This document shows, piece by piece, positions 3,557 through 38,490 of a stretch of 64,000 nucleotides of DNA. The stretch lies in IMG/VR virus record IMGVR_UViG_3300013947_000035, positions 14,009 to 78,008 of that record; one strand, given 5' to 3'. Under the pieces are notes generated by a model. The model searched no databases, was not told the DNA's origin, and saw nothing but the letters and a program-made list of their open reading frames with translations. The translations under genes were made by a program, and so were the position numbers. Numbering within the stretch: position 1 is the stretch's first letter; each line of letters opens with the position of its first letter. The DNA is from a virus (Duplodnaviria; Caudoviricetes).

Positions 3557-3829
3557 TCATCTCAGACTATTCGCGAGTTCGAAGCCTCTTGCGTGTCCGC
3601 AGTAGAAAATGTCGAGAAGTGTTTGCCACATTTCGTACGCGCTTCTGAAGTCGTTCGCGTTTCCGACGAATGTCGCTTCGGGGTTGTCGTCGGTATCGGT
3701 TTCATACTTCGTCAGGGTAAAGTAGAACGTTTCTGTGCCGTCGCCTGCCTTCTTCATTTCAAGAACGTTTCTGTGCCCCTTTAAGAGTCCGAGGTCTTTT
3801 GCTGCAATGATTTCATTTGGTTTGAACAT
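3557..3829 (-). CDS. early hypothetical protein
   Basis: 90 aa; AAGGAG RBS; own promoter and terminator. Confidence 0.8.
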   Translation of the reverse strand: MFKPNEIIAAKDLGLLKGHRNVLEMKKAGDGTETFYFTLTKYETDTDDNPEATFVGNANDFRSAYEMWQTLLDIFYCGHARGFELANSLR

Positions 3830-6418: not shown

Positions 6419-6802
6419 TTACGCCTCCTTTGCGGTAATATTTACTGTCGCTACCCAACACACACTTCTAAACATAGCGTCGAGGTTGAGGCGGGGCTTG
6501 TTGATGTTCTTACGCACCCATTCGTACCATACCGATTTCGGCGTTTCGGTGTGCATTCTATAAAGCTTCGAGTCAAAGAATTCGTCGAGGTCTTCAAGAT
6601 TGCGCTTCAATTCGCCAATCTTGCGCCCGCTACGATTTGTCTTTTTAAGCTCTTTTGCGAGGTCGTAAGAAAAGTTGTAAAGGTCTTTGACGGATTGCAT
6701 TAGAATTGCGCCGTAAAGCGTCTCAGCGGCTTTGTCGTCTACGATATAGCTGCCGAAGCTTTGGTCGTCTTGTTCGATTGCTTGCGTTGTGATGTCTTTC
6801 AT
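6419..6802 (-). CDS. early hypothetical protein
   Basis: 127 aa; AAGGAG RBS; promoter at 6857-6885. Confidence 0.8.
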   Translation of the reverse strand: MKDITTQAIEQDDQSFGSYIVDDKAAETLYGAILMQSVKDLYNFSYDLAKELKKTNRSGRKIGELKRNLEDLDEFFDSKLYRMHTETPKSVWYEWVRKNINKPRLNLDAMFRSVCWVATVNITAKEA

Positions 6803-6988
6803 AAGTTATATCTCCTTCCGATTTCGGGCTTCGTTCGTTCCCTTATCTTCCCCTCCATTGTAATACCATACAAAATAATTGTCAAGCGATTTTTACAAAG
6901 TTTTTTTGCGATTTTGAAAATTTCTTTTTCGGCGGCGGGACAGTGATATTAATAGCACGGTGGCAGGATGAAAAGAAAAGCGGATGGC

Positions 6989-7381
6989 TTATACCTCCGC
7001 TTTCTCGTCTTCGTCTTCCTCGTCGTCAAGGATTTCTCTTATTTCGCTTCTTCCGAAGTCCTCGTCGTATTCAACTGCGTATTCGGCGATTTCACAAGCG
7101 AACCATCCGTCTGCATTGTCGGGGAAGTCGCTCGATACGACGTTGCCGTAACCATTGAACCAGAACCACATATGGTACGGATTGTAGTCACCGAACGCAA
7201 CCATATTCGCAATTTCGCTGGGCGTTTTCCCCGTCATAAGTTCGTCGAAGTCGTCTGTTGAATAGATATATTTCTCACCATTCACACTCTCTTGATATGC
7301 GTTGTTGACGTCTACGAGTTCGTTGTCGCTGAGTTCGTCGAGGATTGCTTCAATTGCTTTCATTTTTGTTTCTTGTGTCAT
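6989..7381 (-). CDS. highly acidic early protein (DNA-mimic candidate)
   Basis: 130 aa, about 35 D/E vs 7 K/R; contains F-x-F-N-G-Y-G-N motif seen in phage hypothetical proteins. Confidence 0.8.
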   Translation of the reverse strand: MTQETKMKAIEAILDELSDNELVDVNNAYQESVNGEKYIYSTDDFDELMTGKTPSEIANMVAFGDYNPYHMWFWFNGYGNVVSSDFPDNADGWFACEIAEYAVEYDEDFGRSEIREILDDEEDEDEKAEV

Positions 7382-34553: not shown

Positions 34554-35063
34554 ATGTATTTTAACTATATAACCAACTCGTTTTCACCAAGTCCGAAAGA
34601 AAAGACGAGAGAAGAAACAGTCATTGAAACCGTGAAAGAACTCGTAACCGAAAACGAAATAGACGAGGACGGCAACGAACACGAAGTTCAAAAAGAAGTT
34701 GAGAAAGAGGTTGAAAAAACTGTAACGGTAGAAATTCCCATACCCGAAGATTGTGTTGAAGTTGATGATGAATTGTGCGAAACAATGTTTAACGAGGTAG
34801 ACACAAGCACGACACCGAAAGCGATTTTCGCCAACGAATACACGCATTATCCCGAAGTTCGAGAACTTGAAATCGTGGTTGACCCGATTGCAGAAAAACA
34901 AGCACGCATTGCCGAACTCAAAAGCAAACTTGACGAAACCGATTATCAAGCAATAAAGTGGGCGGAGGGCTTCATAAGCGAAACCGACTATGCGCCGATT
35001 AAGGCACAACGACAAGCGTATCGTGACGAAATCAACCAACTCGAACTTGAAATCGGCGAATAA
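34554..35063 (+). CDS. tail fibre assembly chaperone-like protein
   Basis: RIAELK..L..TDY..IK..EG and RQAYRDEINQLE C-terminal motif. Confidence 0.7.
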   Translation: MYFNYITNSFSPSPKEKTREETVIETVKELVTENEIDEDGNEHEVQKEVEKEVEKTVTVEIPIPEDCVEVDDELCETMFNEVDTSTTPKAIFANEYTHYPEVRELEIVVDPIAEKQARIAELKSKLDETDYQAIKWAEGFISETDYAPIKAQRQAYRDEINQLELEIGE

Positions 35064-35132
35064 AACTTTTTCAAAGAAATTTGGCATAAAGTATTGACTT
35101 TCTCGGGCAAAGGGTATAATATCGTATCATAA

Positions 35133-35240
35133 CCTCGTATTATTGAGTAGTGCCGATAATTCGAGAAATACTAATAATGCGAGGGCAATCCTCTAATCAA
35201 GACCACGCACTACAATAGGTCAAGATTGGAGGATTTTTTT
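35133..35240 (+). promoter_or_regulatory. structured leader (two long hairpins) upstream of tnpB
   Basis: CCTCGTATTATT/AATAATGCGAGG (35133-35184); AATCCTCTAATC/GATTGGAGGATT (35187-35235) covers the GGAGG RBS. Confidence 0.7.
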
Positions 35241-36308
35241 ATGAAAGCATTCAAGACCAGAATATACCCAAATGCGGAACAAACCGTTTTAATCGAAAAG
35301 ACTTTCGGTTGTTGTCGCTTTGTCTATAATAATGGTCTTGAATGTAAAATTGATGCCTATAAGAAAGATAAAACGAACCTATCTGCTTATGATTTGATAA
35401 AAAGAATCACAACTCTTAAAAAAGAATTCGAGTGGTTGAAAGAAGTCGAATTGCACACATTGCAGCAGTCGATTCTTGATTTAGAAAAAGCATATAAGAA
35501 CTTTTTTAGAGAACATAAGGGATTCCCTAAATTCAAGAAGAAAGGCGACAAAGATAGTTTTAGGACGTTTAATATGCGTTTTGTATCACGTCATTTCATT
35601 TATCTTCCGAAAATTGGAGCGGTAAAAATTGCCGAAAAGATAAAAAAGAAGTGGAGCATACATAATGCGACTATAAGCAAAAGAGCAGGGAAGTATTTTA
35701 TCTCGCTATTAATCGATTACGAATCACCAAAAGTCCAAAAGACAGGTGAAGTTGTCGGAATCGATTTAGGCATTAAGACATTTGCGACCTTGTCAGATGG
35801 AACTAAATATGAGAACCCAAAGACATTAAGCAAATACGAGGACAAGATTGCAAGATATCAACGACAATTAAGTCGAACTCAAAAAGGAAGTAACAATCGC
35901 AAAAAGGTTAAAGAGAAATTAGCCCGATTGCATTTGAAAGTATCTAACATTCGGCAAGACTATTTGCATAAAATGAGCCGCGAGATAGCCAATCGTTACT
36001 CGTTTGTTGCGATAGAGGATTTAAATATTGCAGGAATGGTTAAGAATCACAATTTAGCCAAGAGCATATCCGATTGCAGTTGGGGCGAATTCGTCCGTAT
36101 GCTCGAATATAAATGCTCGTGGTATGGTTGTGAACTGCGTAAAATCGGTCGATTTGAACCCAGTAGCAAGTTGTGTTCAAATTGCGGATATAAGATGAAC
36201 GAAATTCCGTTAAATATCCGAAAATGGACTTGTCCTAATTGCGGGACGCACCACGACCGAGACGTAAACGCCGCAATAAATATTTTGAATATAGCACAAG
36301 AAAAATAA
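35241..36308 (+). CDS. tnpB: RNA-guided endonuclease TnpB (IS200/IS605/IS607 family), no tnpA
   Basis: HTH N-terminus (KTRIYP, FGCCRFVYN); RuvC residues GIDLG / IEDL / DRDVNAA intact; CxxC..CxxC zinc finger. Confidence 0.95.
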   Translation: MKAFKTRIYPNAEQTVLIEKTFGCCRFVYNNGLECKIDAYKKDKTNLSAYDLIKRITTLKKEFEWLKEVELHTLQQSILDLEKAYKNFFREHKGFPKFKKKGDKDSFRTFNMRFVSRHFIYLPKIGAVKIAEKIKKKWSIHNATISKRAGKYFISLLIDYESPKVQKTGEVVGIDLGIKTFATLSDGTKYENPKTLSKYEDKIARYQRQLSRTQKGSNNRKKVKEKLARLHLKVSNIRQDYLHKMSREIANRYSFVAIEDLNIAGMVKNHNLAKSISDCSWGEFVRMLEYKCSWYGCELRKIGRFEPSSKLCSNCGYKMNEIPLNIRKWTCPNCGTHHDRDVNAAINILNIAQEK

Positions 36309-36333
36309 TCTTTTTATAAAATTAAAAAAAGCC

Positions 36334-36361
36334 TTGACATTATGGATTATTGTGCTACAAT
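36334..36361 (+). promoter_or_regulatory. promoter between the tnpB stop and the omegaRNA scaffold
   Basis: TTGACA(36334)-16-TACAAT(36356) with extended TG. Confidence 0.7.
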
Positions 36362-36366
36362 AAAAA

Positions 36367-36480
36367 TTGAAAAGAAGAATGACATAGCACTCTCAGGTAG
36401 AGAGGAAGAGCCTGTTGATACTGTGGACATTAGTTCACTTGAGCAGGAAAATCTTGAATAGGTTACGACCGAAAGAGAAC
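36367..36480 (+). ncRNA. putative TnpB omegaRNA
   Basis: CTCTC-AGGTA-GAGAG hairpin, GAGCCTGTTGA, GTGGAC/GTTCAC hairpin and GAGCAGGAA resemble TnpB right-end RNAs; 3' guide boundary uncertain. Confidence 0.6.
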
Positions 36481-36501
36481 CTTAATATATTGAGGTATAT
36501 C

Positions 36502-37209
36502 GTGACAAATTTTGACGAAATCGAGAAAGAGCAAGAGCAAAAAACCGAAAGCGAGAAATCGTTGACGGCGAAAACTGCTAACGTTCCCGAACTCGCAACC
36601 GAAAAGCGAACGGCTGAATCTGTCATCGAAGCACAACGCCAAATCAACTACGAGAAGATTTCCGAAAACAAGGACTTCCAAGAACGCTCGGCAGTAATCG
36701 ATACTCGTGCTGTCGGCGCAAAACTTGACAAGGCTGACAACGAAACCTACCAACAGGAACTCGAAAACCAGTACGCTCGATACGAACTCGACAAAAAGAA
36801 AGAGGCTCTTGACTACCGAATGAAACTCGAACGCAAGACGACCAAAGAAAAGGTCAAAGCGGACGTGGCAGAGGTCAAGAGAACGATTGCGCTTCAACGC
36901 TATGGCTACCTTTACAAGCCCACAAAAAAAGAAGTGTTGGACGCGGACGGTAACACTGTCAAAGACGAGAACGGAAACGTAGTGTACCAAGAGATACCCG
37001 CAAAAGACTTCACGCCCAGCAAATTCATAAACTGGACGAAAGAGTTTGCGAACTGGTACGGGAACTTGTCAAAATCAATGCAAAACGTAATCAAAACCAC
37101 ACTCAAAATTCTGTTTTTCGGTGGAATTGCGGCACTGCTCGTTTGGGGTGCTGTATCTGGAATCAAATGGCTCATCGATAGCGGAATCTTGGTCGGAATT
37201 GCTAAATAA
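36502..37209 (+). CDS. coiled-coil protein with C-terminal TM anchor
   Basis: GAGGT RBS favours GTG at 36502; ILFFGGIAALLVWGAV TM. Confidence 0.75.
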   Translation: MTNFDEIEKEQEQKTESEKSLTAKTANVPELATEKRTAESVIEAQRQINYEKISENKDFQERSAVIDTRAVGAKLDKADNETYQQELENQYARYELDKKKEALDYRMKLERKTTKEKVKADVAEVKRTIALQRYGYLYKPTKKEVLDADGNTVKDENGNVVYQEIPAKDFTPSKFINWTKEFANWYGNLSKSMQNVIKTTLKILFFGGIAALLVWGAVSGIKWLIDSGILVGIAK

Positions 37210-37232: not shown

Positions 37233-37553
37233 ATGGAAAACGTAAACAGCGTAGAGATTGTCGACTTTGACGAACGTATGCGAATCAAGCTTGCGGAATG
37301 TGACAAGTTCTTCAACGGCAAAGATGCCGCTATTGAAAGAGTCGAACAAGCACGAACTGAACTTGAAGCCGCAGAAAATGCGCTCGCAGAGTATGATAAT
37401 GTCGAATATGTAGAAAAACTCACAGCATATCGTGCTGATTTGGCTCGTAAACTCGGCGTAGTAGAACCCGAAGTCGTAGCGGAGGCGTGTGATGAACAAG
37501 TTGTCGAACAAGAACCCGCACCCGTCATCGAATCTGTGGCACCGCTTTTCTAA
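37233..37553 (+). CDS. acidic coiled-coil hypothetical protein
   Basis: AGGAG RBS 9 nt upstream of ATG 37233. Confidence 0.75.
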   Translation: MENVNSVEIVDFDERMRIKLAECDKFFNGKDAAIERVEQARTELEAAENALAEYDNVEYVEKLTAYRADLARKLGVVEPEVVAEACDEQVVEQEPAPVIESVAPLF

Positions 37554-38490
37554 TACACATCATCAAAACAGGGGAAGTTTTAGTTCTTGGCTAAAAACAT
37601 TTTGTAAGGGATTCGGATTACTTCTGACTTACGAAATCATAGAGGAACTTCTCGAAGAAGCAATAGCCTACACTATAACAGCCATCATCGCGAAAGCGGT
37701 ATCATTTTTGTTAGTGGTATTGCTAACGCAAACAGTAAAAATAACAGCAAAGGGAATAGCAAAGGGAATCACAATAGCACTTAAACCTGCGGTTAAACAG
37801 CTTACCTACAAAGAAGGTAACGACAAAATAACTAAAATATTGAGGTTTATAAATATGTGTAAGGAAAAAATCAAGGAAAATAAATTCTTGAACTTTTTGA
37901 AGAGAAATCCCAAATCGATTTTGGGTATTATTTCTGGTTTTATTGCTTCTCTTGCAGCTGGCGCAGGCACAACTTGCGGTCTCGTTATCGGTAATGTTGA
38001 ACTTCCGCTTTGGGCAAATATTTGCTTCGGCGTTATCGTTTGGCTCGTATTGTTTATTGTCACCGCAATCGGCGTAAAAAATGCAGGTTTTGAAGGCGTT
38101 GCAAAATATCGGTTGAGAAAACTTGCCGAAAAACTTGGTTTTGGCAAAGCGGCAGAAGAACTCGAAAAAGTCGAAAAAGCAATCGAAGCCGAAGATGAGG
38201 CAAAAGCAGAACAAGAAAAACTCGCTCTCGAACAAGCAAAAGCGAAATATCAAGAAGCTTGGAGAATCGACATTACAAGCAAAAAAATTGATATAAACGT
38301 TTCGCTTGAAGATTATATCGCCCAAAGACAAGCCGAAGAAAAAGAAGCGGCTGAAAAAGCAGAGCAAGAGAAACTCGAAGCCGAAGCAGAGCAAGAGAAA
38401 CTCGCAGTCGAAAACGCGTTCTTGGCGGCAGTTTCAAACGGATATGCGGGCTCGTTCGATACTTGGAAAGCAGAGCAAGTAACTAAATAA
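37492..38490 (+). CDS. multi-TM protein with C-terminal coiled coil (holin-like candidate)
   Basis: GGAGG RBS at 37481; several TM segments; second in-frame RBS/ATG at 37855. Confidence 0.65.
   Translation: MNKLSNKNPHPSSNLWHRFSNTHHQNRGSFSSWLKTFCKGFGLLLTYEIIEELLEEAIAYTITAIIAKAVSFLLVVLLTQTVKITAKGIAKGITIALKPAVKQLTYKEGNDKITKILRFINMCKEKIKENKFLNFLKRNPKSILGIISGFIASLAAGAGTTCGLVIGNVELPLWANICFGVIVWLVLFIVTAIGVKNAGFEGVAKYRLRKLAEKLGFGKAAEELEKVEKAIEAEDEAKAEQEKLALEQAKAKYQEAWRIDITSKKIDINVSLEDYIAQRQAEEKEAAEKAEQEKLEAEAEQEKLAVENAFLAAVSNGYAGSFDTWKAEQVTK

Follow-up and report, generated by a model that had tools for sequence, protein, structure and literature searches.

An ISDra2-like tnpB-omegaRNA unit at a fixed phage locus, with a conserved promoter-like sequence between the nuclease gene and its guide RNA

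Introduction

Cas12 descends from TnpB, whose guide RNA is as a rule tied to the 3′ end of the mRNA that encodes the nuclease. An open step in the history of Cas12 is how the guide came to be expressed independently of the nuclease gene. In ISDra2, the IS200/IS605 element of Deinococcus radiodurans, function requires no more than a 116-nt scaffold, the 5′ 115 nt can be omitted, and a protein lacking residues 376-408 still cleaves (PMC10097598). Separate synthetic promoters for tnpB and omegaRNA, moreover, perform as well as the native single transcript (bioRxiv 10.1101/2023.11.20.567912).

Here, we analyze a tnpB locus in a 64,000-nucleotide stretch of DNA (the window) from a Caudoviricetes virus record, in which the order of elements is P1, attenuator-like leader, tnpB, P2, omegaRNA scaffold, guide and geneD (Table 1). 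The locus resembles ISDra2 TnpB-omegaRNA (8exa, 8h1j, 8bf8) in its architecture, DED triad and zinc finger. The RNA is also alike, with a scaffold of about 116-119 nt, a stem-1 hairpin, nested stems 2/3, a right-end (RE) hairpin and a short tail proposed to pair with the stem-1 loop, followed by the guide. Unlike ISDra2, the window has neither tnpA nor a left end, its ORF stops at a point that corresponds to about residue 375, and ahead of the scaffold there is a promoter; it also has an extra stem between stems 2/3 and stem 4, and its tail reads GTATRYCG, versus GTTCAC in ISDra2.

Table 1. Coordinates of the tnpB locus and its flanks, in window positions
Feature	Position	Strand	Details and evidence
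P1, phage's own intergenic promoter module	35064..35122	+	TTGACT 35094-35099; -10 TATAAT 35115-35120 or TAATAT 35117-35122; consensus scan and homology
Structured leader 5′ of tnpB	35133..35240 (~105 nt)	+	two hairpins; folding and homology
Leader hairpin 1	35133-35185
Leader hairpin 2	35187-35198 with 35224-35235
tnpB	35241..36308	+	ATG 35241, TAA 36306-36308; 355 aa; triad intact
86-bp insert	36298..36383	+	absent from canonical relatives (alignment with L053 and L010); supplies new stop codon and P2
P2	36334-36361	+	TTGACA 36334-36339; 16-nt spacer with TG 36353-54; TACAAT 36356-36361
omegaRNA scaffold	36384..36502	+	119 nt; covariation and right-end boundary comparison
Scaffold stem 1	36390-94 with 36400-04	+	loop 36395-99
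Scaffold stem 2/3	outer 36411-16 with 36442-47; inner 36423-28 with 36433-38	+
Scaffold extra stem	36452-55 with 36475-78, and 36461-63 with 36468-70	+
Scaffold stem 4 (RE hairpin)	36480-85 with 36490-95	+	CCTTAA-TATA-TTGAGG
Scaffold tail	36496-36502	+	proposed pseudoknot 36396-99 with 36498-36501
Guide segment	36503..36522	+	TGACAAATTTTGACGAAATC; geneD codons 1-7; boundary from tnpB-less alleles
geneD	36502..37209	+	235 aa; start GTG 36502-36504

Results

The cassette occupies one locus in many phages

Our comparison set comprised canonical relatives with a 375-aa ORF (L053, L010, L185-L195), cassette variants (L181-L184, L196-L201) and relatives with an empty site (L071-73, L111-114). The canonical copies, which share the scaffold and right end of the window (compared for L053 and L185-L195), show at least 88% amino acid identity over the shared ORF (89-96% for L053 and L185-L195) and lie in at least four other genomic contexts. 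In these copies the ORF runs straight into the scaffold, with the TAG inside the scaffold and no inner promoter. They vary in site, some have intact ends, and three (L185, L189, L192) retain a left-end hairpin (CCGATAT...ATATCGG). All copies of the 355-aa form, by comparison, sit at the same locus. This cassette is found on at least 23 + 18 + 6 + 4 contigs (about 50), in four protein variants with the ORF intact, and at least six different upstream genes precede it while P2 is invariant. It is absent from the seven empty-site relatives, and so is polymorphic for presence or absence. The preliminary description had proposed comparing flanks in relatives to see whether the locus is fixed or mobile, and the comparison separates a fixed cassette from variable canonical copies. 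Because the cassette keeps this single locus across many phage backgrounds, it is not a simple passenger insertion sequence with intact ends.

One further genome, L106, keeps only P2 and the scaffold directly before geneD and has no TnpB homologue. This arrangement bears out an earlier caveat, that P2 might serve the gene at 36502. We considered L106 as the ancestral state, with tnpB gained by the window, and rejected this, since in L106 the 5′ half of P1 is fused to the 3′ half of P2, and its scaffold variants are of the L181 type. As judged from these junctions, L106 equals a single deletion between two TTGACATT boxes.

The nuclease is intact and ends early

The tnpB ORF matches three Pfam families, all above cut-off (PF12323, PF01385 and PF07282: HTH_OrfB_IS605, OrfB_IS605 and Cas12f1-like TNB), and its product contains HTH/REC-WED, RuvC (OrfB_IS605) and zinc-ribbon TNB domains. 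Residues 2-349 are colinear with ISDra2 TnpB (8bf8/8exa; E 2e-82), and both CxxC pairs are present (CSNC at 312, CPNC at 331). All three RuvC acidic residues reported in the preliminary description are indeed there, D175/E259/D341 aligning with D191/E278/D361 of ISDra2. Its statement that tnpA is missing also stands: no Y1 TnpA (PF01797) was found in the 78,008-bp virus record, where positive controls were detected and where tnpB is present in a single copy. The C-terminus, ...NILNIA-QEK, corresponds to about residue 375 of ISDra2 TnpB, so that the product is without the tail of about 23 residues that the canonical 375-aa relatives read from the scaffold.

With a dN/dS of 0.05-0.12, tnpB is, by this measure, under purifying selection. 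Over positions 35263-35802 the gene shares 99.6% identity with the canonical copy L193, which indicates, on the strength of this identity, gene conversion between cassette and canonical tnpB genes and a mosaic with the co-resident L193. The residues that read the TAM in ISDra2 are changed in the product (K76 to L, F77 to H, T123/N124 in a gap), and the TAM of the window TnpB is therefore probably other than TTGAT. The left flanks of the three copies that retain a left end, together with the empty allele, point to approximately AWSTA, in an ambiguous register. We dropped the TAM inference on both of these grounds.

A phage promoter and leader precede tnpB

P1 is 80-87% homologous to the promoter that precedes geneD in the seven empty-site relatives, and in tnpB-less relatives it directly adjoins geneD. 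In the window it is followed by a leader of marked folding stability (MFE -45.6 kcal/mol, z -7.1). The tnpB Shine-Dalgarno sequence GGAGG (35228-35232) lies within the 3′ arm of leader hairpin 2, and seven T residues (35234-35240) follow that hairpin; the leader looks like an attenuator or terminator. It is 83% identical to promoter-following leaders in L110 and L115. In L110 the leader precedes an HNH/replisome-organizer-like gene, next to which is a replication initiator, and in L115 it precedes a 273-aa ORF that, as judged by eye, resembles replication initiators. Both hairpins are kept in the window, L110 and L115, with three compensatory pairs. On this homology, the leader is phage-derived and not the left end of an insertion sequence. 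A transposon left end is absent, as only 10 nt separate P1 from the leader and the leader is homologous to leaders of phage replication operons; the left-end hairpin of the three canonical copies is not present in the window cassette. The leader sequence occurs once in the window's phage genome.

An 86-bp insert brings a promoter between tnpB and the scaffold

The preliminary description had placed TTGACA-16-TG-TACAAT in a gap of about 75 bp between the stop codon and the scaffold. The motif is present, with a score of 11/12, and the gap does carry a promoter, but relative to close relatives it is better described as an 86-bp insertion. This insert is bounded by a 7-bp direct repeat, ATAGCAC (36291-36297 and 36384-36390), and it lies where, in ISDra2, the dispensable tail of the protein gives way to the functional scaffold of 116 nt. 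P2 is the top sigma-70 match in the 12 kb scanned (30-42 kb). Promoter-like sites in this region are no commoner than in shuffled sequence (33 found versus 26.8 expected), so the score by itself is weak proof. P2 rises above chance through its conservation: no cassette variant differs from the window in the -35, spacer or -10, and neither does the tnpB-less L106. Recent recombination could, as an alternative to selection, explain why P2 and the scaffold are more highly conserved than the ORF. The predicted start of transcription is at about 36368-36370. With regard to origin, the insert occurs once in the genome and P2 has no exact match in IMG/VR. In a wastewater run labelled as cDNA, short contigs cover 36271-36505 of an L181-type cassette, which is no proof of transcription.

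The scaffold continues to the transposon right end

The scaffold is 97% identical to that of L053, 83% to that of L010 and 95% to that of L106, values that exceed those of the adjoining coding DNA. Covariation in a 31-sequence family alignment covers 19 of 20 pairs. In the same alignment, the CCTGTT/AGCAGG pairing first picked out by eye proves to be a real helix with compensatory changes. In the subfamily alignment, 99% of cells are paired, versus 40-50% in slid controls. Rfam searches of 33-39 kb (E up to 10) and of L053, L010, L110 and L106 assigned neither the scaffold nor the leader to any omegaRNA, intron or riboswitch family; the sole match in the window, snoZ103 (E 8.7), was set aside as chance.

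The right end is present, with its subterminal hairpin and tail at 36480-36502. The terminal hairpin and GTATRYCG tail are kept in eight contexts, beyond which the flanks diverge, and these contexts and the empty alleles together fix the boundary. The scaffold end must thus be moved from near 36480-36485, as first described, to 36502, and because the scaffold continues through the terminal hairpin and tail, the guide starts at 36503. Two provisional assignments were dropped: a scaffold end at 36485 with a guide at 36486-36501, given the conserved hairpin and tail in the eight contexts, and a pseudoknot between the stem-1 loop and ACCU (36479-82), since the ACCU segment is the 5′ arm of stem 4.

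The guide is the start of geneD

geneD, which has no Pfam or PHROG match, is 97% identical in the seven tnpB-less relatives; its 5′ leader now consists of P2 and the omegaRNA. Its Shine-Dalgarno sequence GAGG (36492-95) lies within the 3′ arm of stem 4, and its GTG straddles the transposon right end, so that the guide begins inside the start codon. This overlap is particular to the window lineage, in which a deletion of 9 nt (ATTGAGATG), not shared by the other cassette variants, altered the guide and placed the start codon on the RE boundary; the other variants use an ATG 9 nt downstream. L181-L184, L196-L201 and L106 read ...ATCG followed by TGATTGAGATGACAAAT, and homology to the tnpB-less alleles restarts exactly past ...ATCG. 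The empty alleles read ...GTAGAAGTA followed by TGATTGAG..., and the L181-type guide (TGATTGAG...; also written out as TGATTGAGATGACAAA / TGATTGAGATGACAAATTTT) matches four of the seven exactly. The other three have TGGTTGAG, which the guide of L183 matches. A guide that matches the empty site is expected of any IS605 insertion, however, and is not independent evidence of homing.

In relatives, TTGAGA and not GAAGTA now stands ahead of the 20-nt match to the window guide. Because the 9-nt deletion shifted the guide, the window copy may be left without a homing target, with P2 still serving geneD. A host or other foreign target, as envisaged earlier, was not found with the provisional 16-mer 36486-36501, now part of the scaffold: its 55 matches in IMG/VR include none that is homologous, and in the window it has two sites with three mismatches, a count seen in 1 of 100 shuffles.

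Discussion

Many related phages carry this arrangement at one and the same site, and for this reason the locus looks like a settled homing cassette and not an ordinary jumping gene; as far as its sequence tells, it is probably still selfish. We give about an even chance to the explanation that an IS605-family, ISDra2-like tnpB-omegaRNA unit is no longer a transposon and has been rebuilt as a fixed homing cassette, with transcription of both the guide RNA and geneD starting from its inner promoter. Transcripts from P1 would mostly be stopped or translationally masked by the leader, which would keep TnpB low. P2 would make a single RNA from about 15 nt 5′ of the scaffold on into geneD, and since this RNA runs on into geneD, we infer that P2 is needed for geneD expression. 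P2 would also supply ready-trimmed omegaRNA independently of the tnpB mRNA. TnpB would then bind the P2-made scaffold, and in co-infecting relatives that lack the cassette the complex would cut the empty allele where geneD starts. With the cassette-bearing genome as the repair template, the cassette would spread or be transmitted preferentially, as with the free-standing homing endonuclease genes of T-even phages.

It is possible, if somewhat unlikely, that the cassette is instead an inert remnant, a decaying insertion sequence scar in which the scaffold is a mere 5′ UTR and TnpB goes unused. P2 would then have been fixed only because geneD was severed from P1 by the tnpB insertion and the terminator-like leader. 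The lost left end fits this account, as do the leader hairpin that masks the tnpB Shine-Dalgarno sequence and ends in a T-run, the altered guide of the window lineage, and the loss of tnpB from L106 with retention of P2, scaffold and geneD. Yet L106 is a single deletion derivative set against many intact cassettes, and decay would be hard to square with an undamaged ORF across about 50 contigs and four protein variants, at the low dN/dS given above. Every helix of the scaffold is also kept, and the few changes preserve pairing. If the cassette is inert, it would be a clear case of phage recombination dismantling an insertion sequence and rewiring promoters.

A bolder version of the homing cassette, which we regard as doubtful, is a two-promoter RNA-guided homing or competition module. 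Here, a replication-operon attenuator would stand before tnpB, a minimal omegaRNA would serve as the leader of a phage gene, where it would persist and be usable in trans, and TnpB would gate that gene's translation. Such a module would be intermediate between ORF-embedded omegaRNAs and separately encoded Cas12 guides. Guide RNA might be served in trans because the tnpB-less L106 is predicted still to make it, and the same samples also contain canonical TnpB copies.

True domestication, in which TnpB and a P2-driven guide act as a weapon or regulator against competing phages, the host chromosome or a plasmid, seems to us very unlikely. Of the original reading of the locus as a domesticated nuclease with an independent guide, one part stands, namely that the scaffold is uncoupled from the ORF behind a conserved promoter, with no transposase or left end. 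The other part, a new job for the phage, is not supported, because the guide is the right flank, as in any IS605 element, and presence/absence polymorphism is typical of a selfish homing gene. The fixed locus with its own promoter, no transposase and long-term conservation, and the phage-derived regulatory parts on both flanks, would suit domestication, and TldR (PMC10705468) shows that TnpB derivatives carried by phages can take on new roles. But the guide is still contiguous flank, taken from the first codons of geneD, the provisional 16-mer has no meaningful match beyond chance in the window or IMG/VR, the nuclease is not inactivated as it is in TldR, and the pattern of presence and absence fits a selfish element.

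Least credible of all is that TnpB, sitting on the P2 transcript, blocks or cleaves the geneD mRNA as a translational governor of geneD: TnpB does process RNA 5′ of its own scaffold (PMC10278001), the Shine-Dalgarno sequence lies in a scaffold stem, the GTG straddles the scaffold end and the 9-nt deletion shifted the start codon to the RE boundary, but the argument is purely positional, other cassette variants use the downstream ATG, and no comparative signal sets it apart from a side effect of insertion into a 5′ UTR.

Taking the homing cassette as the preferred reading, the natural cut reproduces the design of structural biologists: a protein without its disordered tail and a scaffold without its dispensable 5′ half, with a consensus promoter between them. 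The cassette thus offers a gut-phage system for asking whether TnpB can be an RNA-guided homing gene without a transposase. It may likewise be used to ask what effect a separately transcribed omegaRNA has, and whether leftover "orphan" scaffolds are usable.

Several known systems resemble this locus in part. Unlike an IS200/IS605 insertion sequence, the cassette is confined to a single site and lacks Y1 TnpA and a left end, while its right end is present. IStrons, in which a group I intron is fused to an IS605/IS607 tnpB in Clostridia-type hosts, are similar in that tnpB-omegaRNA lies within the leader transcribed with a host gene, where mRNA function and guide formation may conflict. In the window, by contrast, the 5′ part is a two-hairpin leader, and there was no Rfam match to a group I intron in 33-39 kb at E up to 10, nor in L053 and L010 at E up to 0.1. 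As in TranC and early type V CRISPR-Cas, expression of the guide RNA is separating from the nuclease ORF, there by a split of the omegaRNA into tracrRNA and crRNA (PMC13565253); the window scaffold is, unlike these, contiguous and unsplit, and no direct-repeat array was found in 34-38 kb. TldRs, some of which are prophage-encoded, are likewise TnpB derivatives fixed in phages with an adjacent guide RNA and no transposase (PMC10705468). TldRs have, however, lost the RuvC residues and target the promoters of other genes, whereas the window triad is intact and its guide is the flank.

The homing endonuclease genes of T-even phages share further features with the cassette. Expression of I-TevI is held down by an RNA hairpin that covers the ribosome-binding site, to which the leader hairpin of the window may be likened. 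As with Seg and Mob, a nuclease gene lies between conserved phage genes and is present or absent at one locus (PMC13565253), and there is a potential target in the allele without the gene. Unlike in the T-even homing genes, the choice of target by the window cassette is predicted to be RNA-guided.

Results

The source record (IMG/VR, 78,008 bp, rated complete; the window is its bases 14009-78008) has long same-strand ORFs in the window, among them those for a major head protein and for proteins of tail- or fibre-like type. Its genome has a single tnpB copy, whose product aligns colinearly with ISDra2 TnpB (E 2e-82) and retains D175, E259, D341 and two CxxC pairs; the ISDra2 TAM contacts are not conserved. 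No Y1 transposase was found in the phage genome. The intact RuvC acidic residues and the lack of tnpA in the preliminary description are thus both confirmed and, by every sequence criterion tested, the protein is TnpB.

Features of the tnpB locus and of related leaders
Feature	Coordinates	Remarks
169-aa ORF	34554-35063	upstream neighbour of tnpB locus
Leader, two hairpins, ~105 nt	35133-35240	10 nt after P1, the phage promoter; very stable fold, z -7.1
tnpB, 355 aa	35241-36308	all three Pfam domains present
86-bp insert	36298-36383	7-bp repeat ATAGCAC on both sides; alignment with L053 and L010
Promoter P2, TTGACA-16-TGcTACAAT	36334-36361	between tnpB stop codon and conserved RNA segment
omegaRNA scaffold, 119 nt	36384-36502	3′ boundary from terminal hairpin/tail conservation and from the restart of homology to tnpB-less alleles
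Terminal hairpin and tail	36480-36495, tail to 36502	
geneD start codon, GTG	36502-04	straddles transposon end; SD of geneD in stem 4
Guide start	36503	
geneD, 235-aa ORF	36502-37209	downstream neighbour of tnpB locus
L110 leader	L110:1501-1607	precedes HNH/replisome-organizer-like gene; next gene scores as replication initiator
L115 leader	L115:2961-3065	precedes 273-aa ORF, replication-initiator-like by eye

IMG/VR holds 68 relatives of the window protein, the two closest being L053 (~90% amino acid identity) and L010 (70%). Alignment of either with the window holds until 36297 and resumes at 36384 with nothing between, which identifies an 86-bp insert in the window. Their ORFs (375 aa) extend across the RNA segment as far as a TAG stop within it; in the window, the early stop (…NIA-QEK*) and P2 are both supplied by the insert. 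In ISDra2 experiments, residues 376-408 proved disordered and not needed for cleavage, loss of omegaRNA nucleotides -231 to -117 was tolerated, and there was hardly any overlap between the functional portions of gene and RNA (PMC10097598). Since the approximate counterpart of window residue 355 is ISDra2 residue 375 and conserved RNA starts directly 3′ of the insert, the insert lies on the functional border of gene and RNA.

The promoter first noticed by eye between tnpB and its omegaRNA is indeed there. P2 is the top sigma-70 match in 30-42 kb, where such matches are in general not enriched, and its transcript is predicted from the -10 box to start ~15 nt 5′ of the scaffold. Its -35 box, spacer and -10 box are invariant in every fetched copy of the cassette (P1 to geneD). 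Between the window and the cassette of contig L181, P2 and the scaffold start show 0 substitutions, versus 10 of 57 positions in P1. This pattern is compatible with constraint on P2 as well as with recent exchange.

The 3′ architecture is common to family members. RNAalifold on a 31-sequence alignment gives a stem-1 hairpin, a nested stem pair and one further stem, with compensatory changes in 19 of 20 pairs; the window forms all 20, and Methanolobus tnpB genes (42% protein identity) have identical stem sequences. Canonical 375-aa copies, which lack the inner promoter, were fetched from the 90% cluster of tnpB (40 members) in further genomic contexts. In all contexts, CCTTAA is followed by a hairpin, variable in loop and length, with pairing kept; in L010, both arms are changed. 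A tail, GTATRYCG, follows, and flanks diverge only beyond it. Homology between tnpB-less alleles and the window restarts exactly after this tail, which, with the conserved hairpin and tail, places the scaffold end at 36502. An end at 36485 was dropped when more relatives showed hairpin and tail reaching 36502. One cassette variant (L196, ~3755-3775) has a 5-nt duplication in the tail, GGTATACCGTATCG replacing GGTATATCG. A 16/18 match to stem 4 plus tail, TAAAATATTGAGGTTTAT, at window 37833-37850 (within ORF 37489-38490) is probably due to chance.

All non-window variants read ATCG followed by TGATTGAGATGACAAAT, and the window lineage is deleted for 9 nt (ATTGAGATG). The deletion lies between two TGA repeats (window 36502-36504 versus L181:3766-3785); it alters the guide and changes the geneD start from ATG to GTG across the transposon right end. 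The resulting guide has a perfect 20-nt match in relatives, preceded by TTGAGA, not GAAGTA. From sequence, the window copy may have been disarmed by this deletion.

On the 5′ side, nothing similar to the left-end hairpin of canonical copies L185, L189 and L192 was found. The leader is 83% identical to those lying between promoter and replication-module genes in contigs of two other phages (L110, L115), and both hairpins are conserved in all three; the second contains the tnpB SD and ends in a T-run (U-run in RNA). No Rfam family was found for this leader, which could be an attenuator or antitermination target. Seven related phages (L071-73, L111-114) have a 97% identical geneD and no tnpB, in the order P1, 30-nt UTR, ATG. 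The window copy thus has neither transposase nor left end, and its 5′ control region consists of phage parts. The first gene after the L110 leader (L110:1628-2263; L106 phage) encodes an HNH endonuclease of 211 aa whose N-terminus is replisome-organizer-like, and is another nuclease gene at the head of a replication operon.

At least 23 contigs, drawn from several samples, encode the exact window protein, and three other 355-aa variants occur on 18, 6 and 4 contigs. The flanks, on which the preliminary description had made fixation or mobility depend, point to fixation: every fetched 355-aa copy keeps one arrangement up to geneD (P1, leader, tnpB, P2, scaffold, geneD), and the upstream genes vary (at least six different ones). 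In every pairwise comparison, tnpB has a dN/dS of 0.05-0.12. The window gene is a mosaic: 35263-35802 differs from canonical L193 at 2 of 540 positions (99.6% identity) and from the L181 cassette by ~13%, and the 3′ half is nearer L181. The canonical copy (L193/L194) is carried by another phage contig, recovered from samples that also contain window-type phages, and the alignments identify 35263-35802 as a gene-conversion tract.

Several canonical copies likewise have no left end; their 5′ junctions are unrelated to one another, and each starts within a few bases of the ATG. In L193:1488-1501, 12 nt separate the upstream ORF from tnpB; in L187:2383-2500, tnpB has its own promoter and a hairpin. 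The sequences suggest that units of tnpB plus right end spread among phages by recombination, not TnpA. L053, a 127-kb phage with a canonical copy, has tRNA genes immediately upstream of tnpB and a HEARO (IscB omegaRNA) match (6789-6997; 130 bits), so that OMEGA elements of two kinds occur in this phage.

L106, a phage-like contig of 51.5 kb, was binned in a Clostridia MAG. Here a junction at TTGACATT joins the upstream half of P1 with the downstream half of P2; scaffold and geneD come next, and the genome has no TnpB homologue. The simplest reading is that an L181-like cassette lost the DNA between its two -35 boxes. The orphan scaffold and hybrid P1/P2 form the geneD 5′ leader (L106:2340-2600, minus strand; G001:C2:50321-50575). 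The L106 scaffold differs from that of the window at five positions, all pairing-preserving.

Discussion

P2 very likely drives geneD, as the initial caveat about the gene at 36502 had allowed. It is the only consensus promoter ahead of geneD, and the sole one in L106; the terminator-like leader, together with 1.1 kb of tnpB, separates P1 from geneD. The P2 RNA would carry a complete minimal omegaRNA at its 5′ end and continue into geneD. In another ortholog, cleavage can be inhibited by part of the TnpB mRNA (PMC10278001). Uncoupling of ORF and omegaRNA is compatible with activity and might favour it.

With roughly even confidence, we favour an immobilised, selfish RNA-guided homing cassette. 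The gene is kept by selection and exchanged through recombination. Empty alleles co-circulate: of the seven, four are exact matches to the L181-type guide, and the remaining three match the L183 guide. An inert scar in which P2 serves geneD alone is a lesser possibility; the altered window guide and the tnpB-less L106 speak for it, the low dN/dS of tnpB against it. True domestication of TnpB against another target is improbable. TnpB-mediated control of geneD translation, with the geneD SD inside the scaffold, is slightly less probable still.

A limited literature search found no case of natural promoter insertion between tnpB and scaffold. The window copy departs from a mobile IS200/IS605 element on three of four points, and is distinct from TldRs, IStrons and CRISPR systems. 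Its scaffold resembles that of ISDra2 in order: stem 1, stems 2/3, stem 4 (the right-end hairpin) and tail. An ISDra2-like pseudoknot is also predicted, the stem-1 loop (GGUA/GGCA) pairing with the tail (UAUC/UGCC); one pair is altered on both sides, and 99% of cells pair in the subfamily alignment, versus 40-50% with slid partners.
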